The notes below the pieces were generated by a model. That model saw only the letters and a list, made by a program, of their open reading frames with translations. It made no database searches and had not been told where the DNA came from. Shown in pieces: positions 1 to 51,070 of a stretch of 51,070 nt of DNA. The position numbers and the translations under genes are program-made. Origin of the DNA: a virus; IMG/VR virus record IMGVR_UViG_3300010279_000002, positions 1 to 51,070 of that record. The stretch is one strand, 5' to 3'. The number at the start of each line of letters is the position of its first letter. The first letter of the stretch is position 1.

Positions 1-123
1 TAGTGGAGATGGGCGGACTTTAACAAATGATATTGTCCGATGTCAATATGATGCCGTTGTCTATCAAAACCATCATTTTTCAATTATTTATAAATTATAC
101 TTGCTATTTAACTCTTTCAAAAA
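1..123. repeat. Terminal direct repeat, copy 1 (wrap-around of a circular molecule or att duplication)
   Basis: Read by eye as an exact 123-bp match to 50948..51070 (tagtggagatgggcggac...ctctttcaaaaa). Confidence 0.9.
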
Positions 124-4526: not shown

Positions 4527-4823
4527 ATGGAAATCACACCCCAAACACGCATCATTGACCTGACCGTCTCACAGCTTGTGGAACTCATTGAGAACACCAT
4601 GAAAGCGACCATGACGGAACCGGAAAAGGAAAAGCGCCTTGTGTATGGCATCGCCGGCATCGCATCGGTTTTCGGATGCTCGATTGCAACGGCAAATCGA
4701 ATCAAGAAAAGCGGGGTTATTGATGCCGCCATCATCCAAGATGGCCATCTGATTGTCACGGATGCGGATTTGGCGGTCAAGTTTTGGAAAGAACACAAAT
4801 CTATCAAAACCAAGTCTATATGA
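4527..4823 (+). CDS. HTH domain protein (DUF3853-like)
   Basis: VYGIAGIASVFGCSIATANRIKKSGVIDAAIIQ resembles the Bacteroidota mobile-element HTH family. This assignment is from memory, not a search. Confidence 0.5.
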   Translation: MEITPQTRIIDLTVSQLVELIENTMKATMTEPEKEKRLVYGIAGIASVFGCSIATANRIKKSGVIDAAIIQDGHLIVTDADLAVKFWKEHKSIKTKSI

Positions 4824-6781
4824 AGCAAGTTATTCTAAAATCAATTACCCTTGTGAACTTCAAGGGTGAAAAGGAAAGGACAACGGAATTCAACCCCGAT
4901 GTCACGACCATCAAGGGCATGAATGGTCTTGGAAAGTCAAGACATTTCGATGCTTTCATTTGGCTTCTTTTCGGCAAGGATTCCCAAGACCGGAAAGATT
5001 ATGAAATCAAGACCCGCATTGACGGAGAGGAATTGCACAATGTGGAATCCACCGTTTCCGCGGTCATCCTGGTGGATGGTCAGGAACTCACATTGAAGCG
5101 GTCTCTTGTTGAAGAATGGGTCAAGCCCCGCGGCAAGGCCGAAAGGGTGTTCAAGGGCAACCGCACTGATTGTTGGTGGAATGATGTGCCGGTCTCCGTG
5201 GGTGAATACACAAAGAGGGTTTCGGACATCATAGATGATTCCCTTTTCAAGATGCTCACGAACCCGACATTCTTCGTGAACATGAAGATGCAAGCGCAGC
5301 GCGACACCCTCTTTGCAATTGCCGGTGCGATGACTGACGCGGAAATCGCCGCAAAGAAGCCCGAATTCGCGGCTTTGCTTGACAGGATAAGCGGCAAGTC
5401 ATTGTCTGACTTCAAGGCGGAAATCGCGGCCAAGAAACGCCTTTTGAAAGGCAAACTTGCGGAGATTTCCCCGCGTATTGACCAAACCCAAAAGATGAAG
5501 CCCGAATCAGAGGATTTCGCGGCCATCGAAGCTGAAATCACCCGCATTGACGAGGAAATCAAAGAGGTGGATGAAGCCATTTCCGACATCAGCAAGGCCA
5601 TCCGCCTTGCCTATGAGGAAGAAAGGGGCAAGGTCGCAAGAATCAACACCCTGAAATCAGAGAGCAAAAAGGCATTGTTCACGGCTCAATCAGCCGAAAA
5701 TGACAAGGCGTACAAGGCCAATGAGAAAAGGCGCGAATTGGCAAGTGAACTCCGTGGCCGGAAGAATGAACTTGACATCATCAGCCGCGCAATCCATTCG
5801 GGAGAGGATGCCCGGAAGAATGCGGAAAACACCATCGCCGGCATTGAATCGCGGATGAATGCCTTGCGTGCCGAATGGTCTGACAAGAACGGCCGCGAAT
5901 ACAAGGGCAATGACATTTGCCCGGTATGCCATCAGGAATTGCCGGAAGCGCAGAAAGCCGAAGCCCGTGCAAGATTCGCGGAAGAAAAGGAAAGGCTGCT
6001 CGTCGAAATCACAAAGAAAGGCAGGGCTTTGGGTGAATCCCTTGCATCGTGGAAGAAAGAGTTGGATTCCATCAATGCAAAGCTGGAAATCGACATCAAG
6101 ACCAAAGAGGGCATTGAAGCCGAAATCAAGTCTTTGGAAGAAACCCTTTCGGGCATCACCGAAACCGTGGCCATCACATTGACGGCAGCTGATGTTCCGG
6201 AATGCGTTGAACTTGCCAATCAGATTGCCACCATCGAAGCGACCATCAGCCATGACAACACGGCGGCTCCGGACAATTCCGCATTGGTTCAGAAAAAAAC
6301 TGATTTGAGCCTTGAAAAGACCAATCTTTTGAAGCGCCTTGCGGTTCGTGACACCATCAGGAAAGCGGATGAAGAAATCGTCCGTCTCGGAAAAGAGGAA
6401 AAGGAACTTGCCAATCAGATTGCCGAAATAGAGGGCGAAGAAATCACCGTTCAGGACTTCATCAGGGCAAAGGCTGATGTTTGTGAAGCCAATATCAACC
6501 GCCATTTCCACTACGTGCAATTCAAGCTGTATGACACCACGATTGAGGGCAACATCTTTGAGGTGTGCGTCCCGCTAATCAACGGCATCCCCTATGGCGC
6601 GGCCAATTCCGCTTCAAAGGTCAATGCCGGGCTTGACATCATCAATGCCCTTTGCCGGTTCAATGGCGTGTGCGCTCCAATCTTCATTGACAACCGCGAG
6701 TCCGTCAATGAACTTATCCACACGGATGCCCAGATCATCAACCTTGTCGTGACAAGGGACAAAGAACTTGTAATCGAATAG
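4820..6781 (+). CDS. Rad50/SbcC/RecF-like AAA ATPase with coiled coil and CxxC hook
   Basis: The N-terminus has a Walker A motif (KGMNGLGKS). A long coiled coil carries a central CPVCHQ motif. The C-terminal lobe contains a Walker B-like motif. An ATGA overlap places the start at 4820. Confidence 0.8.
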   Translation: MKQVILKSITLVNFKGEKERTTEFNPDVTTIKGMNGLGKSRHFDAFIWLLFGKDSQDRKDYEIKTRIDGEELHNVESTVSAVILVDGQELTLKRSLVEEWVKPRGKAERVFKGNRTDCWWNDVPVSVGEYTKRVSDIIDDSLFKMLTNPTFFVNMKMQAQRDTLFAIAGAMTDAEIAAKKPEFAALLDRISGKSLSDFKAEIAAKKRLLKGKLAEISPRIDQTQKMKPESEDFAAIEAEITRIDEEIKEVDEAISDISKAIRLAYEEERGKVARINTLKSESKKALFTAQSAENDKAYKANEKRRELASELRGRKNELDIISRAIHSGEDARKNAENTIAGIESRMNALRAEWSDKNGREYKGNDICPVCHQELPEAQKAEARARFAEEKERLLVEITKKGRALGESLASWKKELDSINAKLEIDIKTKEGIEAEIKSLEETLSGITETVAITLTAADVPECVELANQIATIEATISHDNTAAPDNSALVQKKTDLSLEKTNLLKRLAVRDTIRKADEEIVRLGKEEKELANQIAEIEGEEITVQDFIRAKADVCEANINRHFHYVQFKLYDTTIEGNIFEVCVPLINGIPYGAANSASKVNAGLDIINALCRFNGVCAPIFIDNRESVNELIHTDAQIINLVVTRDKELVIE

Positions 6782-6810
6782 ACTATATCAAACCATCAAT
6801 ATTTTTTGTT

Positions 6811-7554
6811 ATGAGTGAAGAAAACAAGACATTGGCCGTTACAGAAGCGGTCGAGAAGACAAAAACCGTGACCTACAAATCCGCCGGTCAGGTTGTGACA
6901 TTGAGCCGTACAATCGTGCGGAACTATCTTACCAAAGGGGCTGATGGCGTGACCGATGCCGACATAGTGCAGTTCATCTCCATCTGTCAGTTCAACCAGC
7001 TCAATCCGTTCCTGAATGAGGCATATCTTATCAAGTATGGCAACCAGCCGGCACAGATGGTTGTTTCCAAAGAAGCCCTTTTGAAGCGGGCGGATGCTTG
7101 TGAGAACTATGAGGGTTTACAGGCTGGAATCATCGTTCTCCGTGACAAAGAGGTGGTGGAAGTCGAGGGATGTTTCCTTTCCCCGGGTGACACGCTTCTT
7201 GGCGGATGGGCAAAGGTTTACCGTTCTGACAAGAAATATCCCTATGTGGCAAAGGTGAACCTTTTCGAATATGACAAGAAGCAATCCTTGTGGAAAGAAA
7301 AGCCGTCCACGATGATTTCCAAGATAGCAAAGGTTCAGGCGCTCCGTGAAGCATTCCCCGCACAGCTTGGGGCGATGTACACGCAAGAGGAACAGACAAC
7401 CGTTGATGACCAAGCCGGCCTTGAAGAAGAAATCAAGACCCGTGGCAACAAGAAAGAGATTGTCATCAATGTCAATGATGCCACGGAAGCCCCCGCACAG
7501 GAACAACCCAAACCCGCAAAGGAAAGCCCCGCACCGGCAGGGCCGGGATTTTAA
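6811..7554 (+). CDS. recT: RecT/Bet-family single-strand annealing protein
   Basis: LNPFLNEAYLIKYGN...KVQALREAFPAQLGAMYTQEE is a typical RecT core, and the protein has an acidic/Pro-rich tail. Confidence 0.75.
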   Translation: MSEENKTLAVTEAVEKTKTVTYKSAGQVVTLSRTIVRNYLTKGADGVTDADIVQFISICQFNQLNPFLNEAYLIKYGNQPAQMVVSKEALLKRADACENYEGLQAGIIVLRDKEVVEVEGCFLSPGDTLLGGWAKVYRSDKKYPYVAKVNLFEYDKKQSLWKEKPSTMISKIAKVQALREAFPAQLGAMYTQEEQTTVDDQAGLEEEIKTRGNKKEIVINVNDATEAPAQEQPKPAKESPAPAGPGF

Positions 7555-7578
7555 TCAACCCATGAAATCCGAAAGGCC

Positions 7579-8322
7579 ATGAAGCTGCAAATATTGGGTT
7601 CAAGTTCAAAGGGCAATTGCTACATCTTTCGGGCATCAGCCGGTGAAGTGTTGATGGTTGAATGTGGAGTGTCTTTCAATGACATCAAAAAAGCCTTGAA
7701 TTTCGACATTTCAAAGGTGGTTGGATGTCTGATAAGCCATGAGCATCAAGACCACGCCAAACAGGCTGGAAAGTGCCTTGAAGCCGGCATTGATTGCTGG
7801 ATGTCCGACGGAACGGCCGCGCAACTTGGAATCACCAATGACCGGCGCGTTTACCTGATGCAAGAATTGCATCCTTACAAGATTGGCTCTTTCGGCGTGC
7901 TTCCTTTCAAGACCGAACATGATGCCCGTGAGCCTTTCGGATTTCTCATTCATCACCCGGAAATGGGAACGGCCTTGTTCGCAACCGACACATACTTTCT
8001 TGGATACACCTTTCAGGGCTTGAACAACATTCTTATCGAATGCAATTACCGGAAAGACATCTTGGAAGCCAATGAGAGGGCGGGAAAGTTGCCGGAAAGG
8101 GTCTGGAAGCGCACCTTGCGAAGCCATTGCAGCTTTGACACATGCAAGGCCATCATGGAAGCCAATGACCTGACGGCCGTGAACAACATCGTCTTGATTC
8201 ACCTTTCCGATGGCAATTCCAATGCAATGGAATTTCGGGACGGCATTGCGGAAGCGACCGGCAAGACCGTTCATATAGCAGAACCGGGGATGACCATCCC
8301 ATTTGACAAGACACCATTTTAA
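7579..8322 (+). CDS. Metallo-beta-lactamase-fold hydrolase (likely recombination nuclease)
   Basis: Carries the HEHQDH (HxHxDH) motif and is adjacent to recT. Confidence 0.75.
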   Translation: MKLQILGSSSKGNCYIFRASAGEVLMVECGVSFNDIKKALNFDISKVVGCLISHEHQDHAKQAGKCLEAGIDCWMSDGTAAQLGITNDRRVYLMQELHPYKIGSFGVLPFKTEHDAREPFGFLIHHPEMGTALFATDTYFLGYTFQGLNNILIECNYRKDILEANERAGKLPERVWKRTLRSHCSFDTCKAIMEANDLTAVNNIVLIHLSDGNSNAMEFRDGIAEATGKTVHIAEPGMTIPFDKTPF

Positions 8323-8333
8323 TACATACAACA

Positions 8334-8852
8334 ATGAAAAAATTTATCGTAAAACTCAAAAGTGATGATTCCATCATCGGAACATTTGAAACGAAAGTCG
8401 AAGCATCGGAATTTGTGACGGAAGCAATTGATGACAACCAGATTGATACCGTTTTCGATGTGGTGTGTGAGGAAAAAGACATTGATGATTATCCCCTCAC
8501 TTTCGGCGATGCTTGCAAGTTTCTCGGAATCCCTGAAAGCGCGATTGCCTTGAAAGGAGACAATGAAATCGCAAAATTCGCCGTGGCTTTCTATAAGCTG
8601 GCCATCATCGCAAAGGCATGGAACAAGATTGATGGCTTTGTGCCGAATTTCTCAAATTCCGACCAATACAAATATTTTCCGTGGTTTGTCTATGAGACCA
8701 AACATGCGGGCTTCGTGTCTGCGGTTACGTATAACACGGCTTCGTATACGGCTGCGCATTTCGGTTCTCGGCTTTGCTTCAAATCGTCCTCGACAGCTCG
8801 CAAATTCGGAGAGACATTCACGGCCTTGTACAATGAAATGTTCCTTGGTTAA
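8334..8852 (+). CDS. Remote DGR target protein (172 aa) carrying VR2
   Basis: The C-terminal segment HAGFVSAVTYNTASYTAAHFGSRLCF is encoded by DNA matching the 3' 76 bp of the TR. Every mismatch falls at a TR adenine. Confidence 0.8.
   Translation: MKKFIVKLKSDDSIIGTFETKVEASEFVTEAIDDNQIDTVFDVVCEEKDIDDYPLTFGDACKFLGIPESAIALKGDNEIAKFAVAFYKLAIIAKAWNKIDGFVPNFSNSDQYKYFPWFVYETKHAGFVSAVTYNTASYTAAHFGSRLCFKSSSTARKFGETFTALYNEMFLG
8703..8779 (+). repeat. DGR variable region 2 (VR2)
   Basis: Manual alignment to TR 46979..47055 gives 11 mismatches (12 if position 8703 is counted), all at TR adenines. Homology stops abruptly at both ends. Confidence 0.85.
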
Positions 8853-8864
8853 ACCGTTCGCCTT

Positions 8865-9314
8865 ATGGAAAAATTCATCGGTCAGGACATCGCGGATGTC
8901 AATATGAGAAAGATTTTTCTGACGGACAATGCGGATGCGGTTGTTGAAAAGACTTACATGAAGCCTTATTCCGCATCCGAACTGCAAGGGAAGAAAGAGG
9001 ATTTGGCCAATGTCTCAATCAAGATTGCGGACATCGAGCAAAAGAAGAAAGCGGCCATTGAGGGGTTCAAGGGTGAATTGAAACCGCTTCATGAGGAAAA
9101 GAACATGCTTGTGGACAGCATCAAGGCCAAAGCCGAACTCGTGACGGAACAGTGTTACAGGTTCACCGATCAGGAAGATGGCATCACGGGATTTTACAAT
9201 GCGGATGGTGCATTGATAGAATCAAGGCCGGCAACGGCGGATGAAATGCAAGGAAACCTTTTCAAAATCAACAAGAAATCAGACAACAAACAATCTAAAA
9301 TTCAGGCATCATGA
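8865..9314 (+). CDS. Hypothetical protein (coiled coil)
   Basis: 149-aa ORF with an ATG start. Confidence 0.5.
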   Translation: MEKFIGQDIADVNMRKIFLTDNADAVVEKTYMKPYSASELQGKKEDLANVSIKIADIEQKKKAAIEGFKGELKPLHEEKNMLVDSIKAKAELVTEQCYRFTDQEDGITGFYNADGALIESRPATADEMQGNLFKINKKSDNKQSKIQAS

Positions 9315-10054
9315 ACAACGAAAAAATGACATTCAACCTCGCACCCGGTATGGAAGATGTGGAAATCACCTTGCGTGAAGCCCCGGCCGCAAAAGTCCTT
9401 GATGAAAAACCCCCGGTGAAGATTGACATCACCGGAACAATCGGAGCCGTTGCGGAATGGCTTGAAAAGAGGGTGGAAGCAAGTCAATTCTCACAGAAGA
9501 ATTGCCACATCCTTGTGGACAGGGAAAAGGGCGAAATCACCCTTGTGACCAATGAAGCTGACGAATACAAGCGGGGAAAGGTAAGCGGCGCATTGAAATT
9601 CAATCCGGCATACCTTGAATTCGGAATCAACAATTCATCGGTTGTGTGGACACCCACGGAATTGGGCATGTTCTTGAAGATGAACCGCGTTTATTTCCCC
9701 GACCGCACCGAAAACATGAAGTTGGTTTCAACCCTGATGAACTTCGTGGCAACGGTGAACAATTCCATTGTGAAGTCCGTCAAGGAAAACGGAGACCGCG
9801 CGGACAATTTCAGTCAGGCCGTGGATTCCAATCTTCCAGCATCATTCACCATTCAAATCCCCGTTCTGAAAGGTGGTGAAAAAGAGACCATTGAAGTGGA
9901 GACATTCGCAAAGATTTCGGGGCGTGATGTTTCATTCATCCTGATTTCCCCGGATGCGGCCGCCTTGTTTGAGGAAATCAAGGAGACGGAGATTGACAAG
10001 CAGCTTGCATCAATCAGGGAGATTGCCCCGGACATCGCAATCATTGAAGTTTAA
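9311..10054 (+). CDS. Hypothetical protein
   Basis: 247-aa ORF with an ATGA overlap with the previous gene. Confidence 0.55.
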   Translation: MNNEKMTFNLAPGMEDVEITLREAPAAKVLDEKPPVKIDITGTIGAVAEWLEKRVEASQFSQKNCHILVDREKGEITLVTNEADEYKRGKVSGALKFNPAYLEFGINNSSVVWTPTELGMFLKMNRVYFPDRTENMKLVSTLMNFVATVNNSIVKSVKENGDRADNFSQAVDSNLPASFTIQIPVLKGGEKETIEVETFAKISGRDVSFILISPDAAALFEEIKETEIDKQLASIREIAPDIAIIEV

Positions 10055-10070
10055 TGCGGCAATGAATCGA

Positions 10071-10104
10071 AAGCCCCTTGAATTTGGGCATTTGAGGGGC
10101 TTTT
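10071..10104 (+). terminator. Rho-independent terminator-like hairpin
   Basis: The aagcccct/aggggctt 8-bp stem (10071..10078 and 10095..10102) is followed by tt. Confidence 0.5.
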
Positions 10105-10119
10105 CAGACACTTTAAGCA

Positions 10120-10896
10120 ATGAAAGAGACCTTTTATTTTCAGCATGATTTCAATGCGCGGAATGACCCCAAATTGCAATCCGTGCTGATGGACAAGGGC
10201 ATTGCCGGCATCGGAATCTATTGGTGCATCATTGAGCAGCTTTATGAACAGGGTGGGGTCTTGTCTCTTGCTCAAAGCAAAAGCATTGCATTTGCCTTGC
10301 ATGTCAAGGTTGATGAAGTCAAAAGCATCATCATTGACTTTGGCTTGTTCCAAAACGATGGCGTGAACTTCTGGTCTGATTCGGTCAATGCACGCCTGAC
10401 ACGCCGGAAAGAAATTTCAGAAAGGCGCAGGACGGCCGCTTTGAGGTCATGGGAATCAAGGAACGGTGCGCCGGAAGCTGATGCCGATGGTGATGACAAG
10501 GCAGATGATGAAGAAGCCGTTGCCGTTGCCGTTGAGCCGGTTGAAGAAGCAACGCCGGTGGAAGCCCCCGAAAGGAAACCGATGGACTACAATGCCATTG
10601 TGGACATGTATCACAAGATATGCGTTTCCTATCCCCGCATCATGAAGCTGTCTGATGAACGGAAGAAGAAAATCAAGTGCCGTTATGAGGAAATGAAAGG
10701 TGACTTGACCATCCTTGAAACGGTGTTCAGGAAGATGCAGGAATCGGACTTCATGAAATCAGGATCATGGGCATCGTTTGATTGGGTATTCAAGAACTCG
10801 CAGAATTGGATGAAAGTCTATGAGGGCAATTATGACAACAAGCCTTTGCAGGGCAAGAAACAAACCAAAGTGAATGATATATGGCCAGAGAGTTAG
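10120..10896 (+). CDS. Replication initiator / replisome organiser (DUF4373 / Lin1244-like N-domain)
   Basis: The N-terminus FYFQHDFNARNDPKLQSVLMDKGIAGIGIYWCIIEQLYEQ is followed by an acidic linker. The gene precedes the helicase-loader-like ATPase. Confidence 0.55.
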   Translation: MKETFYFQHDFNARNDPKLQSVLMDKGIAGIGIYWCIIEQLYEQGGVLSLAQSKSIAFALHVKVDEVKSIIIDFGLFQNDGVNFWSDSVNARLTRRKEISERRRTAALRSWESRNGAPEADADGDDKADDEEAVAVAVEPVEEATPVEAPERKPMDYNAIVDMYHKICVSYPRIMKLSDERKKKIKCRYEEMKGDLTILETVFRKMQESDFMKSGSWASFDWVFKNSQNWMKVYEGNYDNKPLQGKKQTKVNDIWPES

Positions 10897-13046: not shown

Positions 13047-14123
13047 ATGAAATATCAACCCCACAAATTCAACTACCGTTGGACACTGAAAGATGCTGTC
13101 TTTACAAAGGATAAAGGCAAGGTTTTTTCGTGCTTTGCATGTGGTGGAGGCAGCTCAATGGGCTACAAATTAAGCGGTTACAATGTTATAGGCTGCAATG
13201 AAATTGACCCCCGCATGATGTACACTTATTGTCAGAATCACAACCCGCGTTTCAACTTCTTGGAGCCGATACAGACATTCAAGTTGCGTGATGACTTGCC
13301 GGATGAATTGTACCAGCTTGACATCTTGGACGGTTCACCGCCATGTTCGACATTCTCAATCGCCGGAAGCCGGGAAGATGCATGGGGCGTGGAAAAGAAG
13401 TTCAGAGAGGGTCAGGCATCACAAGTCCTTGACACACTTTTCTTCGATTTCATCGACCCTGCAAAGAAGTTGCAGCCCAAAGTGGTGATTGCGGAGAATG
13501 TGAAAGGACTGTTGCTCGGTGAGGCGCAAAAGTATGTGGCAAGAATCTATGAGGATTTTGACAAGGCCGGATATATGGTGCAACATTGGCTTTTGAACGG
13601 TGCGACAATGGGCGTTCCACAAAGGCGTGAAAGGGTGTTTTTCGTATGCTTGCGGAAAGACCTTTGCGCACCTTTCTTGAAACAAGTGAATCTATTTGAG
13701 GAAAAGCCAGTATTGGAAATGGAGTTCAATGAAGCGCCAATCCTCTTTGGGGAATTCGCCGATTTTAACGGGAGGATGTGTGAAAGTCCCATTGTCCGCA
13801 AGCTGTGGGACAACCGCCAAAGGGGTGATGTCTCACAGGGCGATGCGAACTTGCGCTTGTACGGCAAGGAAGCCAATTTCAACCAGCAATATGTCTATCT
13901 TGACAAGGTTTCCCCGACATTGGCATCAAAGGAGACATGTCTCGTGCATTTTGAACAACCCCGGTATTTGTCGGCATCGGAAGTGTGTTGTCTTTCGACA
14001 TTTCCTCTGGATTATAACTTTTGTGGCCAATCCCCGCACTACATCTGTGGAATGAGTGTGCCGCCGCTTATGATGGCGCAAGTGAGCAATCAAGTATGGT
14101 TGCAATGGTTATCTAAATTATGA
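13047..14123 (+). CDS. dcm: DNA (cytosine-5)-methyltransferase (orphan)
   Basis: Motif I FSCFACGGGSS, motif IV GSPPCSTFS, motif VI AENVKGL and motif VIII QRRERVFF are all present. No adjacent endonuclease is evident. Confidence 0.9.
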   Translation: MKYQPHKFNYRWTLKDAVFTKDKGKVFSCFACGGGSSMGYKLSGYNVIGCNEIDPRMMYTYCQNHNPRFNFLEPIQTFKLRDDLPDELYQLDILDGSPPCSTFSIAGSREDAWGVEKKFREGQASQVLDTLFFDFIDPAKKLQPKVVIAENVKGLLLGEAQKYVARIYEDFDKAGYMVQHWLLNGATMGVPQRRERVFFVCLRKDLCAPFLKQVNLFEEKPVLEMEFNEAPILFGEFADFNGRMCESPIVRKLWDNRQRGDVSQGDANLRLYGKEANFNQQYVYLDKVSPTLASKETCLVHFEQPRYLSASEVCCLSTFPLDYNFCGQSPHYICGMSVPPLMMAQVSNQVWLQWLSKL

Positions 14124-45552: not shown

Positions 45553-46866
45553 ATGGGACTTGTCATTGGAATCGGCGATGCGAAGCCAAAATTCGCATAC
45601 GATTACTATTATGGCATTGAGTGGGATGCGACCGTCTCCAATCCGAACCCGACACGAATCGGCAAGGATGAATTGCATCAGTCTCTCCCGCTTCAATGCC
45701 TGATGCGCCGGTGCATCCTCAATGATGACGGCACGGTCAATTACTATCTTCATGCCAATGATTCCACGAAACGGGACAATGGCGTGGCCGCAAATCTTGA
45801 TGGCTCCGATGGTCAGTATATGGTGGATTTGCCGGACATGTATGTCCGCTTTGAAACCGATGGTGACAAATCGCGTTGCCTGATGTCCGAACACCCGCTT
45901 CCGGGGTTCACCCTTTGGGGCAGGGACTTTGTTTCGGCCGTGGAAGCAACCGTGCAGAGAAGCACACACAAACTTGCTGCCGTGGTGAACACCGATGCGG
46001 ATTATCGCGGCGGTGGCAACAATGAGGCATGGGATGGGACATACCGTTCAATGCTGGGGACGCCCGCAACGGGAATATCGCTTACCAATTTCAGGGCTTA
46101 TGCCCGAAATCGCGGCTCCGTAAATTGGAATTGCAACACCTATCACATCCATCGCAAGCTGTGGTGGCTCTTTGCTGTGGAATACGCCACATTTAATTCG
46201 CAAAAGGCATTCAAGGCGGAACTTGATGCGAATGGCCATCATCAGGGTGGTTTGGGCAGTGGTGTCACGACACTCAATTCATCCAAGTGGAATGCCTTTA
46301 ATGGCTATTATCCATTTGTCCCTTGCGGTATTACAAATGAATTGGGCAATCATACCGGCAACGTGGATTACACCATGCCGGAAGAATATGATACCACTAC
46401 AACCGTGGTTCATGTCCCGTCTTATCGTGGCGTGGAAAATCCCTTTGGCCACATTTGGAAGTGGACGGATGGTTGCAAGTGTCTGATTCAGTCGGAATCC
46501 GATGGCGGCAAGTCGCTTTTCTATGTGTGCGATGATGTTTCCAGCTTCACAAGTTCGGGCATCGCAAACTATGAGTTGCGCGGCGAACTTCCGAGGATAG
46601 AGGGATATGTCAAGGCAATATGTTTGGGTGAACATGGTGAAATCATGCCATCGGCAGTTGGTGCCGGTTCAACCACATATTTCTGCGATTACTTCTATAC
46701 ATCCATTCCGTCAAGTGGTGTGAGTGAGCGCGGCGTGTTGTTCGGCGGTTATGCGGCTTGTGGTGCGTCTGCGGGCTTCGTGTGTGCGTATACGTATTAC
46801 GCGGCTTCGAATACGGTTGCGGATATCGGTTCTCGGCTTTGCTATTCCGCAAATCGGGCGGCCTAA
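45553..46866 (+). CDS. DGR target protein 1 (437 aa) with C-terminal variable region; C-type-lectin/FGE-like fold expected
   Basis: The C-terminus ...GVLFGGYAACGASAGFVCAYTYYAASNTVADIGSRLCYS is encoded by VR1. Confidence 0.85.
   Translation: MGLVIGIGDAKPKFAYDYYYGIEWDATVSNPNPTRIGKDELHQSLPLQCLMRRCILNDDGTVNYYLHANDSTKRDNGVAANLDGSDGQYMVDLPDMYVRFETDGDKSRCLMSEHPLPGFTLWGRDFVSAVEATVQRSTHKLAAVVNTDADYRGGGNNEAWDGTYRSMLGTPATGISLTNFRAYARNRGSVNWNCNTYHIHRKLWWLFAVEYATFNSQKAFKAELDANGHHQGGLGSGVTTLNSSKWNAFNGYYPFVPCGITNELGNHTGNVDYTMPEEYDTTTTVVHVPSYRGVENPFGHIWKWTDGCKCLIQSESDGGKSLFYVCDDVSSFTSSGIANYELRGELPRIEGYVKAICLGEHGEIMPSAVGAGSTTYFCDYFYTSIPSSGVSERGVLFGGYAACGASAGFVCAYTYYAASNTVADIGSRLCYSANRAA
46730..46843 (+). repeat. 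DGR variable region 1 (VR1)
   Basis: 114-bp ungapped alignment with TR. There are 17 mismatches, every one at a TR adenine. Confidence 0.9.
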
Positions 46867-46940: not shown

Positions 46941-47054
46941 GCGGCGTGTTGTTCGGCGGTAATGCGAATAATGGTGCGAATGCGGGCTTCGTGTATGCGA
47001 ATACGAATAACACGGCTTCGAATACGAATGCGAATATCGGTTCTCAGCTATGCT
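46941..47054 (+). repeat. DGR template repeat (TR)
   Basis: 114 bp containing 27 adenines, mostly in AAT/AAC codons (…GGNANNGANAGFVYANTNNTASNTNANIGSQLC). It lies between the target gene and the RT. Confidence 0.9.
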
Positions 47055-47207
47055 TGTAAAAATATAGTGCATACCGGAAACCTTGCCACAAAAACAATCT
47101 AATGGGGATTGAATGAGTTGAGCAATCAACGGCAAAAGATTACATACCGAAAAACGGCTTTGGTAATGCCATAAGGCCATGAAGAAGCCTATTATTCAAG
47201 CAAACCA

Positions 47208-48239
47208 ATGAAGCGAATTGCGAACCTCTTTGATAAGGTCATAAGCCTTGAAAACTTGCGCCTTGCGGATGACAAAGCCCGCAAGGGCAAGTTGAAGTCT
47301 TATGGTGTCCGCATCCATGACAAGAACCGGGATGCGAACTTGTTGCATTTGCATGATGAATTGGTGAACGGTACATTTCACACTTCAAAATATCACATCT
47401 TCACCATCTTTGAGCCGAAAGAAAGGCAGATATTCCGATTGCCTTACTATCCTGACAGAATCTTGCATCATGCCATCATGAATGTGATGGAACCGATTTG
47501 GGTGGGAATCTTCAACGGCGACACCTATTCTTGCATCAAGAACCGGGGAATCCATGCTTGTGCAAGGGCGGTGCGCTATGCATTGAAAACCGACCCCAAA
47601 GGAACAGTCTATTGCCTGAAAATGGACATCCGCAAGTTCTATCCATCCATTGACCATGACATCCTGAAAAGCATCGTGCGCCGGAAGCTGAAAGATGAAA
47701 GGCTTTTGGCATTGCTTGATGAAATCATTGATTCCGTGCCGGCGGGTGTTCCCATCGGCAACTACCTTTCCCAATACTTTGCCAATCTTTATTTGGCGTA
47801 TTTCGACCATTGGTTGAAAGAAAGGAAAGGTGTCAAGCATTATTTCCGGTATGCCGATGACATCGTGATTCTATCTGATGACAAGGATTTCTTGCATTCA
47901 CTCTTGCATGATATCCGCGCCTATCTTCGTGACAATCTGAAATTGAAAGTCAAGAAGAATTATCAGGTGTTCCCGGTTGATGCGCGTGGAATTGACTTCG
48001 TAGGTTATGTGTTCCGTCACACCCATACAAGGTTGCGCAAATCCATCAAACAGGCACTTTGCCGCCGGGTGGCGATTCTCAACAAGAGAAAGATTGTGCC
48101 TACAATGGAGAAGTACAAGCAGCAAATATGTTCGTGGTGGGGCTGGTGCAAATACTGCAACTCAATCAATCTTTTGAACAAACTTTCTAAATCATTTCCT
48201 TATGAGATTAAATTCGTTAGAGCCAAACACCCATTATGA
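47208..48239 (+). CDS. DGR reverse transcriptase
   Basis: 343 aa. Contains the RT motifs, including PIGNYLSQYFANLYL (the DGR-type [I/L]GxxxSQ motif) and FRYADDIVIL (YADD). Confidence 0.9.
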   Translation: MKRIANLFDKVISLENLRLADDKARKGKLKSYGVRIHDKNRDANLLHLHDELVNGTFHTSKYHIFTIFEPKERQIFRLPYYPDRILHHAIMNVMEPIWVGIFNGDTYSCIKNRGIHACARAVRYALKTDPKGTVYCLKMDIRKFYPSIDHDILKSIVRRKLKDERLLALLDEIIDSVPAGVPIGNYLSQYFANLYLAYFDHWLKERKGVKHYFRYADDIVILSDDKDFLHSLLHDIRAYLRDNLKLKVKKNYQVFPVDARGIDFVGYVFRHTHTRLRKSIKQALCRRVAILNKRKIVPTMEKYKQQICSWWGWCKYCNSINLLNKLSKSFPYEIKFVRAKHPL

Positions 48240-48585
48240 TGTGGTGAATGGCCGGCCGCTTGCCATCGAAAGAGACAATGACGGTTCAACCATCATCCGT
48301 TTCAACATCACCGAGAAAACGGAAGTGCCGGAGGGCAAGAAGAAAGCCGAATTGGTGGGGTACAATTGCCGGGAAATCCGCATTTGGGATGCCCCCACAA
48401 AGGTGAATATCAAGCGGGCATTCATCCGTTCCGTCATTGATGAATCGGCCGAATTTGACCTTGTGAACTCCTACAACAAGCACATCTTGGCAATCCGTCA
48501 GGATGATGCCGCCGTGGAAGAATACAAGGAGTTTTTGGCATTCACCGAGGATGTGGATGCGGCCATCCTTGAAATGTTGAACTAA
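48202..48585 (+). CDS. Hypothetical protein
   Basis: 127-aa ORF that overlaps the RT 3' end by 38 nt. Confidence 0.45.
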   Translation: MRLNSLEPNTHYDVVNGRPLAIERDNDGSTIIRFNITEKTEVPEGKKKAELVGYNCREIRIWDAPTKVNIKRAFIRSVIDESAEFDLVNSYNKHILAIRQDDAAVEEYKEFLAFTEDVDAAILEMLN

Positions 48586-50947: not shown

Positions 50948-51070
50948 TAGTGGAGATGGGCGGACTTTAACAAATGATATTGTCCGATGTCAATATGATG
51001 CCGTTGTCTATCAAAACCATCATTTTTCAATTATTTATAAATTATACTTGCTATTTAACTCTTTCAAAAA
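50948..51070. repeat. Terminal direct repeat, copy 2
   Basis: Exact match to 1..123. Confidence 0.9.

Follow-up and report, generated by a model that had tools for sequence, protein, structure and literature searches.

A remote variable repeat in an early-operon gene of a Bacteroidales prophage, a very probably active DGR target of the phrog_11581 family

Background

In the DGR of the Bordetella phage BPP-1 (mtd/avd/TR/brt) an invariant template repeat (TR) is transferred, through adenine-specific mutagenic retrohoming, to a variable repeat (VR) situated near the 3' end of the gene for a ligand-binding protein. This system acts on a single local target. It has a recognisable Avd protein and a defined IMH, the latter with a hairpin downstream in addition to a GC-rich element, and its C-type lectin fold is solved.

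The targets of phage DGRs are overwhelmingly tail proteins, and the global survey of Roux et al. 2021 could not detect remote targets (PMC8144416). A departure from the local arrangement was described in Quimbyvirus, which possesses a second, distal and non-structural DGR target in a defence-related island, a situation termed without precedent at that time; C-type lectin domains were reported for both of its targets (Benler 2021, Microbiome 9:78, PMC8008677). A 2025 Nature paper described a second VR, distal from the reverse transcriptase (RT) and near counter-defence genes, in four species of inducible gut prophages; it cites LoVEphage alongside Benler 2021, and leaves the target protein family and its VR boundaries undefined (PMC12629997). 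In the tentaclin-encoding phages two different proteins each receive a VR from a single TR; these VRs differ in length, and the shorter one uses only part of the TR adenines, namely 21/25 or 20/28 (PMC10743442).

The present work concerns a viral stretch of 51,070 nucleotides (IMG/VR record IMGVR_UViG_3300010279_000002), hereinafter the window. An initial annotation, made from the sequence alone, had recorded in a gene for a 172-aa protein, far removed from the DGR cassette, a partial VR (VR2) attributed to mutagenic retrohoming. Below we analyze this locus in relation to its cassette, its counterparts in related genomes and the protein family to which its product belongs, and compare it with the systems described above.

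Results and discussion

The DGR cassette of the window

The features of the cassette and of the remote locus are collected in Table 1. The RT displays both of the motif classes typical of DGRs, [ILV]GxxxSQ and YxDD, in the form of IGNYLSQ, starting at residue 183, and YADD, starting at residue 215; these are of the same type as the RT motifs of BPP-1. The local VR (VR1) differs from the TR at 17 positions, every one of which (17/17) is a TR adenine, and its differences among four related genomes likewise fall mainly on adenine positions. The C-terminus of the 437-aa tail protein that carries VR1 (residues 388-435) also matches positions 127-174 of phrog_11581, the family of the remote target. 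By analogy with BPP-1, the spacer between the TR and the RT gene presumably belongs to the RNA that contains the TR and primes the synthesis of cDNA. Among the small ORFs around the cassette no Avd-like match was obtained with Pfam at E<=10, NCBIfam or the PDB sequences, and the 127-aa ORF overlapping the end of the RT gene is the sole candidate for an accessory protein, a role that is unproven. As Avd is not universal among annotated DGRs, its absence weakens only the claim that the cassette is canonical.

Table 1. Positions of the DGR cassette, the remote target and its surroundings in the window
Feature	Position	Strand	Remarks
Early-operon block holding the VR2 gene	4784..10896	+	Pfam and PHROGs annotation
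RecT	6811-7554		neighbour upstream of the VR2 gene
MBL-fold hydrolase	7579-8322		neighbour directly upstream of the VR2 gene
172-aa VR2 target gene	8334..8852	+	phrog_11581 family, E 1.6e-21
VR2, remote variable repeat	8704..8779	+	counterpart of the 3'-terminal 76 nt of the TR
DNA methyltransferase gene	13047-14123		~4 kb downstream of VR2
VR1 target gene, 437-aa tail protein	45553..46866	+	phrog_5302, E 5e-119
VR1, local full-length VR	46730..46843	+	114 nt, 3' end of the tail-protein gene
TR, template repeat	46941..47055	+	whole TR templates VR1; only 46980-47055 templates VR2
TR-RT spacer	47056..47207	+	presumed part of the TR-containing RNA
DGR reverse transcriptase, 343 aa	47208..48239	+	RVT_1, E 1.7e-16; phrog_1423, E 1.4e-122
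127-aa ORF overlapping the RT gene end	48202..48585	+	phrog_11557, E 1.2e-9

A remote, adenine-specific copy of the 3' part of the TR

In the window alignment, VR2 pairs with TR positions 46980..47055 over 76 nt without a gap and with 11 mismatches. All of these lie on TR adenines, so that 11 of the 20 adenines are changed as against none of the 56 non-adenine bases; the hypergeometric probability of such a distribution is P = 2.9e-8. The homology ends sharply on both the 5' and the 3' side. Hence, the realignment bore out the initial annotation on the gapless partial VR, on its adenine-only mismatches and on its abrupt limits, and a mismatch at a non-adenine TR position, which would have spoken against that reading, did not turn up. 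The one adjustment concerns position 8703, at which the window has C against the A of the TR and which had been entertained as a possible twelfth mismatch. Codon 124 of the relatives encodes His in 56, Pro in two and Leu in two variants, and its first base is always C; as 8703 is thus constant while 8704 varies, the 5' edge of the tract lies at 8703/8704. The tract accordingly starts at 8704, with 11 mismatches, and 8703 is outside it.

VR2 is located in the C-terminal third of the 172-aa protein, where it encodes residues 124-149 (H-AGFVxAxTxxxASxxxAxxGSRLC-F) and is followed by 24 further codons. VR1 and VR2 share a reading frame, and the TR adenines occupy the first and second codon positions. 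When every TR adenine is replaced by N, the resulting pattern occurs at exactly three sites in the window (VR2 at 8706, VR1 at 46771 and the TR at 46982), where shuffled sequences give an expectation of 0, and a permissive BLAST search of the window with the TR recovered no copy beyond the TR, VR1 and VR2. The distances given earlier, 38.3 kb on the linear map and 12.7 kb around a circle with both repeats on one strand, were reproduced: VR2 and the TR lie 38,276 nt apart on the same strand, and because the window termini bear a direct repeat of 123 bp, the separation around the circle is ~12.7 kb.

The two target proteins have a homologous C-terminal segment in common, and one might therefore consider ordinary paralogy or gene conversion between the C-terminus of the tail protein and the VR2 gene, with the adenine bias arising from chance or base composition. 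We attach practically no probability to this possibility. The chance placement of all 11 mismatches on 20 adenines is contradicted by the above P value. VR2 and VR1 differ at 11 positions, all TR adenines save one (47055, the last aligned base), and at the non-variable sites VR2 is nearer to the TR than to VR1. Furthermore, the adenine-only pattern is found in every related genome. The original attribution of VR2 to mutagenic retrohoming rather than to paralogy is thereby upheld.

Variation of VR2 among related genomes

Relatives of the window were gathered by means of pattern scans, protein searches and contig look-ups. As exact scaffold scans of metagenome and genome collections supplied only one more complete genome and one fragment of 2.8 kb, the sample of related genomes stems mostly from the protein look-ups. 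Several observations on these sequences bear on the activity of VR2: 1) In four related genomes the stretch of the TR that corresponds to VR2 is identical, and their VR2 copies differ at adenine positions only. 2) In an alignment of 11 genomes, covering the VR2 gene and 150-nt flanks, 18 of the 20 adenine columns of VR2 are variable and frequently contain three or four bases, as opposed to one of the 56 non-adenine columns and 125 of the 743 flank columns (17%). The sole variable non-adenine column is 8718 (T/G), in two genomes of 11. 3) The close relatives provide 61 distinct variants of the protein, with an identity of 93% or more outside the VR; in these the entropy amounts to 1.82 bits at the adenine codons and 0.087 bits elsewhere, and the AAY codons each display 9-14 types of residue. 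4) Across the VR tract, 1490 of 1499 residue observations (99.4%) can be reached from the TR codons by changes of adenines alone. 5) Within a genome the variable sites of VR1 show no relation to those of VR2, from which it follows that the two targets diversify independently.

An alternative to a living target would be a fossil VR, written once by the DGR or derived from a duplication of the tail-protein C-terminus, that has ceased to receive cDNA and whose variants are old inherited alleles. It could draw on the fact that all of the variation seen lies between assemblies rather than within one population or sample, that no canonical hairpin or IMH was recovered downstream of VR2, and that the nearly fixed sequence CTGTSTSASSASSAIG is common to a set of homologues (P0021, P0024, P0043-P0049, P0062) located on ~70-kb contigs, suggesting that frozen VRs may exist in the phrog_11581 family. 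Such a history is nevertheless very improbable for VR2. The 11 genomes, with flanks that are ~83% invariant, each possess a different VR2, with up to four bases in an adenine column, and the close relatives contribute the 61 distinct variants. Decay would strike all bases, yet the non-adenine columns match the TR and are more conserved than the surrounding gene (1/56 variable versus 17% in the flanks), which is the opposite of a decaying fossil and would follow from repeated overwriting of the tract from a conserved TR. The same layout also recurs in 20 more contigs with zero non-adenine mismatches (see below). Taken together, both the fossil VR and ordinary paralogy are effectively excluded. 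The diversification across relatives goes beyond the single-sequence evidence of the initial annotation and points to ongoing rewriting; we consider it highly likely that VR2 is a genuine and currently active remote second target of the phage's single DGR, in the phrog_11581 family.

The 3' end of the tract

Both VR1 and VR2 in the window end with ...CGGCTTTGC and the TR ends with ...CAGCTATGC, a contrast between VR and TR that recurs in divergent cassettes. We considered the two 3'-terminal differences common to VR1 and VR2 (A>G and A>T) as fixed marks of the IMH/IMH* kind and rejected this, as the first of them varies. Residue 146 is Arg in 55, Gln in four and Leu in one of the close variants, which places TR position 47046 inside the rewritten tract rather than among the fixed differences between VR and TR; at the second 3'-terminal position the VR1 of one relative retains the A of the TR. 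No significant hairpin was detected 3' of VR2 (z = +0.38), and no IMH element was demonstrated for VR2. In comparison with BPP-1, the locus is thus alike in the adenine-specific change of its VR and in the type of its RT motifs, but it differs in that VR2 is remote, whereas the BPP-1 DGR has a single local target, and in that Avd, the IMH with its hairpin and the C-type lectin fold were not recovered here.

Genomic neighborhood of VR2 and the question of a virion role

Annotation with Pfam and PHROGs agrees with the earlier placement of the locus between an MBL-fold/RecT pair and the replication genes. The order of genes in the block that contains VR2 is: SbcC-like ATPase, RecT, MBL-fold hydrolase, VR2 gene, phrog_12688, phrog_11501 and DnaD-like protein, with a DnaC-like protein, Ant and a methyltransferase further downstream in the conserved order. 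The gaps flanking the VR2 gene measure a mere 11-12 nt on each side, which suggests that it is co-transcribed with these early genes. The description of its product as a small protein without a signal peptide also held: neither a signal peptide nor a membrane segment is present in the 172-aa protein (maximum Kyte-Doolittle value over 19 residues 1.08), which is probably cytoplasmic.

A different reading accepts VR2 as active and takes the 172-aa protein to be a virion component, such as a small adhesin or adaptor on the tail, in which case its variability would amount to ordinary diversification of host range. The segment encoded by the VR is indeed the same module as that of the tail protein, with one TR writing both; the predominance of tail proteins among the phage DGR targets (PMC8144416) speaks in the same direction, and gene position alone is no proof of a non-structural role. 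We deem this reading unlikely in light of several features taken together. The gene is closely packed, by the spacing noted above, within a block of SbcC-like, SSAP, MBL, DnaD and DnaC genes, and its position in this early operon is conserved: of 78 related loci, 40-47 show the gene order of the block, with amino-acid identities of 50-65%, and the order also recurs in prophage contigs. Homologues in LoVEphage (AUSP0023_00079) and in a stand-alone cassette locus (L073) lie among methyltransferase, Ant and replication genes. Moreover, no match of the 172-aa protein to a structural PHROG or to a structural fold was obtained, and the VR1 and VR2 of one genome bear no resemblance to each other at the variable sites.

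The MBL-fold neighbour carried a "faint" precomputed tag of the Apyc1 type. Its candidacy as an Apyc1-type anti-defence nuclease was rejected, with a score of 12.7 bits against a cut-off of 50 and no match among the PDB sequences.

The phrog_11581 family and the predicted structure of the target

The 172-aa protein belongs to phrog_11581, a large family in Bacteroidales phages whose members are small, non-structural targets of DGRs. Its match to the phrog_11581 profile (E 1.6e-21) has the best stretch at residues 44-123, upstream of the VR and largely within the N-terminal part for which the initial annotation had proposed such a search. The protein has 621 close homologues, and an exhaustive profile search returned 2,150 family representatives at 50% clustering, of which 698 reach E<=1e-10. 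In length most members are 110-300 aa, with a matching core of ~115 residues; the longer ones were inspected as a source of informative domain fusions, and proved to be tandem duplications of the same module. Homologues at 43-51% identity retain a hypervariable AGFVxAxTxxxAxxxxAxxGSRLCF segment between conserved flanks.

No Pfam family (even at E<=10) or NCBIfam family was found for the 172-aa protein, including any FGE-sulfatase, DUF1566 or lectin match in the Pfam search, and the same searches with the VR1 target, the LoVEphage homologue and the L073 targets also gave nothing. The predicted layout consists of an N-terminal alpha/beta domain (1-50), a helical core (~55-117), the VR and C-terminal helices (152-170). 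Two AF2 models were made: the first covers the full-length protein (pLDDT 79), and the second covers the core, for which a more diverse alignment was used (pLDDT 75, pTM 0.73). They agree on this domain layout, and in both the VR segment has a pLDDT <50. Foldseek searches of the PDB with the full-length and core models gave no match (best E 2.7 and 5.9), those of BFVD returned only uncharacterised phage proteins, and a profile search against the PDB sequences yielded nothing beyond GB1-like matches, below significance, in the N-terminal domain (E 0.16). The conjecture that the C-terminal part forms a minimal C-type lectin loop is consequently not confirmed, given the low pLDDT of the VR and the lack of a PDB neighbour in Foldseek. 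Going by the models, the scaffold, with its helical core, internal VR and two helices, may represent a fold that is so far absent from the PDB.

Relationship to LoVEphage, Quimbyvirus and other described systems

The LoVEphage protein AUSP0023_00079 (OY731433.1) is homologous to the 172-aa protein (tblastn 8e-9, 32% identity over residues 56-172), and the alignment of the window protein with proteins of the LoVE type displays the common motifs FEDACxxLG, AxxKLxxIAxAxN, YKYxPWF and GSRLCFKSSxxAxxFGExF. The 71-kb LoVEphage genome was reassembled for a check of its TR and VRs. It contains an RT at 69656-70471, a TR at 70747-70864 and a local VR at 71034-71151, along with a remote VR at 55203-55315 in AUSP0023_00079, which lies 15 kb from the TR on the opposite strand and whose 19 mismatches are all at adenines (19/19). 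The neighborhood of AUSP0023_00079, with its methyltransferases and tRNA ligase, fits the description of the Quimbyvirus distal target (PMC8008677); this match and the co-citation of LoVEphage with Benler 2021 suggest that LoVEphage and Quimbyvirus are the same phage.

The resemblance to the window is extensive. In each case one DGR serves a tail-associated VR beside the RT and a distant VR in a small protein encoded among non-structural genes; the remote targets of LoVEphage and the window are both hypervariable at TR adenines only; and the phages are temperate, with gut Bacteroidales as hosts. The differences are equally clear: 1) The Quimbyvirus/LoVEphage genomes measure 71-75 kb, as opposed to the ~51-kb element of another lineage in the window. 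2) The VR of the LoVE type is full length (113 nt), because these proteins possess an extra segment of ~25 residues (...LVLWGGxAxxGAxCG), missing in the window type, that carries its 5' part. 3) The LoVEphage VR is on the strand opposite to the TR and near methyltransferases and a tRNA ligase, whereas VR2 of the window is on the same strand as the TR, between an MBL-fold hydrolase and replication genes. In the prophages of the 2025 study the distal VR is near counter-defence genes (PMC12629997), and in the window a methyltransferase gene lies downstream of VR2 (Table 1). The tentaclin phages (PMC10743442) share with the window a shorter second VR copied from the same TR in another protein, but both of their targets are C-lectin receptor-binding proteins within the cassette, whereas the short VR of the window is remote and in a protein of the early operon.

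With the LoVEphage homologue verified, and with Quimbyvirus and the four prophage species already published, the initial proposal of a new kind of DGR cargo cannot be maintained. It is well supported, rather, that the VR2 locus represents a known kind of remote, non-structural DGR target, occurring in an undescribed phage lineage with a short form of the VR.

Short VRs, stand-alone cassettes and the spread of the layout

The short 5' boundary of VR2, which had been thought unusual, likewise has precedents, both in the published short second VRs (PMC10743442) and within the family itself. A group of loci (L071, L073, L075, L077, L079, L080 and L081) has, beside family members, a local TR of just 69-77 nt and usually two VRs. 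In three of them (L071, L073 and L075), whose stand-alone TRs can be read in frame, these TRs begin at the Ala-Gly-Phe (or Ser-Gly-Phe) codons of VR2 and end at the same ...CAGCTATGC; the L073 cassette is part of an element with an integrase, in which it is flanked by an Ant gene on one side and by the head genes on the other. Since the TRs of stand-alone cassettes are no longer than this, the ~76 nt of the "partial VR" are the native VR length of the family, and it is the TR of the window that is longer at its 5' end so as to serve the tail protein too. The 90% clusters of the LoVE type include up to 37,449 member sequences.

At the DNA level the VR scaffold stays conserved even between phages with target proteins of only ~40% identity. 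A scan of IMG/VR with this scaffold returned 79 loci. In 20 further contigs, mostly of 47-68 kb, a TR is combined with two VRs, one long and local, the other short and remote, without a single non-adenine mismatch in the TR/VR pairs. In these contigs the homology of the local VR extends 43-45 nt further 5' than that of the remote VR, which stops 6-7 nt upstream of the scanned core, equivalent to the 8704 boundary here. The remote target is directly downstream of an MBL-fold hydrolase in 47/78 loci. On contigs of 54-320 kb the element is integrated beside host genes of uncultured Bacteroidales and is therefore a prophage. The terminase of the window is closest to that of Porphyromonas phage005, with 69% identity, and positions 7579-9314, when compared with the phage collection for near-identical DNA, gave no match.

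A possible course of diversification and a possible function

By analogy with the DGR of Bordetella phage BPP-1, we infer the following steps of retrohoming. The RT would copy the TR RNA into a cDNA with misread adenines, and this cDNA would take the place of VR1 in the gene for the tail protein. In an independent event, the stretch of cDNA for the 3' 76 nt of the TR would replace 8704-8779. The 3' end of the exchange would be at the shared ...GGTTCTC(G/A)GCT(T/A)TGC end, and its 5' junction would be set by the point at which the homology between VR2 and the TR stops, within ATGCGGGCTTCGTGT, which corresponds to the native VR boundary of the family. The ~13 variable codons of VR2 allow ~1.9e11 possible proteins on the otherwise conserved scaffold of a small, soluble protein.

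As for function, we tentatively suggest that the 172-aa protein might be a variable ligand binder acting in phage-host or phage-phage conflict against a polymorphic intracellular partner; published suggestions are in line with an intracellular variable binder in conflict. Extending this to the phrog_11581 proteins at large, as cytoplasmic binders reprogrammed by DGRs to track a polymorphic intracellular partner, is a still more doubtful proposal. If true, the partner would be a host defence protein that is neutralised, or a component of a competing phage that is excluded.

Conclusions

Almost the whole biology of phage DGRs has been framed around tail fibres and host range. Reports of non-structural, apparently intracellular proteins that are rewritten by a DGR are few, and the VR2 locus adds to them a well-documented, active case from a new phage lineage. 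A single family, with a VR of ~76 nt and a conserved scaffold, now joins the distal target of LoVEphage, the 172-aa protein and the targets of the stand-alone cassettes. Survey windows centred on the RT miss remote targets such as VR2. For the study of ligands there are inducible and cultivable relatives, namely LoVEphage, Phocaeicola phage PV4-TP1 and Bacteroides phage BI-TP1. Should the tentative functional reading hold, the phrog_11581 proteins would constitute a hypermutating counter-defence or exclusion factor expressed from the early operon, distinct from the diversification of receptor binding.

Sequence variation within and beside the variable repeats

The three codons adjoining the remote variable repeat (VR2) in the gene for the 172-aa protein occur in close relatives as GAGACCAAA, AAATCCCCC, AAATCCACC, AAGACCAAA, AAATCCCTC, AAGACCCAA and CAATCCACC, with an entropy of 1.0–1.5 bits. 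This stretch of the window does not align with the template repeat (TR); every one of its variable columns has an A in some variant, and its central CC is invariant. The variation could reflect lineage divergence combined with selection beside the putative binding site, or it could stem from an imprecise 5' cDNA junction.

Inside VR2, window position 8718 (a T in the TR) is the sole non-adenine column that varies, with T>G in two relatives, L094 and L096, and the residue encoded by the codon containing it (129) appears at the protein level as D, T, A, P or W. The substitution may be explained by a differing TR base in the genomes of L094 and L096, or it may represent a rare non-adenine misincorporation. 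The TR itself differs between genomes at window position 46955, where the window has GTTCGGCGG and three related genomes have GTTCAGCGG; this G/A difference falls within the 5' portion of the TR that serves only the local variable repeat (VR1).

At the 3' end, the TR reads CTATGC in the region of 47050, whereas nearly all VRs read CTTTGC (window 8774 and 46839), a synonymous change in a Leu codon. T occupies position 8774 in all 11 of 11 VR2 copies, and the same contrast is also present in the divergent stand-alone cassettes with short TRs (L071, L073 and L075). VR1 and VR2 each gain from this change a short inverted repeat, TTTGC...GCAAAT, that is absent from the TR. The change may be a cis-acting mark that tells VR from TR, although the fold is statistically non-significant.

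Genomic context and candidate accessory genes

Coordinates of the associated sequence features
Feature	Family	Location	Context
Terminal direct repeat, 123 bp		window 1-123 and 50948-51070	
Variable codons 121-123		window 8694-8702	directly upstream of VR2; differ among otherwise close relatives
127-aa ORF	phrog_11557	window 48202-48585	overlaps end of RT gene
109-aa ORF	phrog_19665	L073 10378-10707	between target and TR, the usual avd position

No Avd-like gene was recognisable in the window or in L073; either the 127-aa ORF of the former or the 109-aa ORF of the latter might encode an accessory factor that has escaped recognition. The next gene upstream of the VR2 gene encodes an MBL-fold hydrolase (window 7579-8322), an adjacency kept in 47 of the 78 loci. 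Precomputed tables placed a "faint" Anti-Pycsar Apyc1 tag on homologues of this hydrolase, and the tag proved to be unsupported: a re-scan scored only 12.7 bits, where the cut-off is 50, and no PDB sequence matched. The terminal direct repeat points to a genome of ~50.9 kb that either was assembled as a circle or is terminally redundant.

Diversity of homologous targets

One subgroup of homologues of the VR2 protein, at 71-84% identity (P0021, P0024, P0037, P0043-P0050, P0062 and P0074; several on ~70 kb contigs), displays a near-fixed VR-equivalent, HAGFVCTGTSTSASSASSAIGSRLCF, with S/N/T changes only, and also deviates at positions that have no adenine templating in the window TR. This subgroup may possess a frozen VR, or its lineage may use another TR that contains few adenines.

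The LoVE-type proteins, with the longer VR, include two 90% clusters, P0215 and P0217, of 37,449 and 14,127 member sequences. In some LoVE-type proteins, P0210 and P0218 among them, the VR segment is duplicated internally (...SADSNYDWSYS...GAYLGLACAYSVHDWSLSYAGVGSRL), which could be a true tandem duplication or, alternatively, a mis-assembly of the hypervariable region. The deposited annotation of LoVEphage itself places a 5S ribosomal RNA (barrnap) within the phage genome (L001 8751-8856; OY731433.1 57700-57805), adjoined by a 40-nt palindrome at 57655-57694; this call is probably an annotation artefact.

The relatives also differ in their complement of targets. In L032, a target is placed upstream of an SbcC-like gene. 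Target counts and placement differ in two further relatives, L126/L120 (IMGVR_UViG_3300000304_000103) and L143/L155 (IMGVR_UViG_3300048575_000478): one of them has three targets, comprising two local VRs and the remote VR, and the other carries, within its early region, a pair of short VRs separated by 4.8 kb. Lineages therefore differ both in how many small targets they have and in where these are placed.
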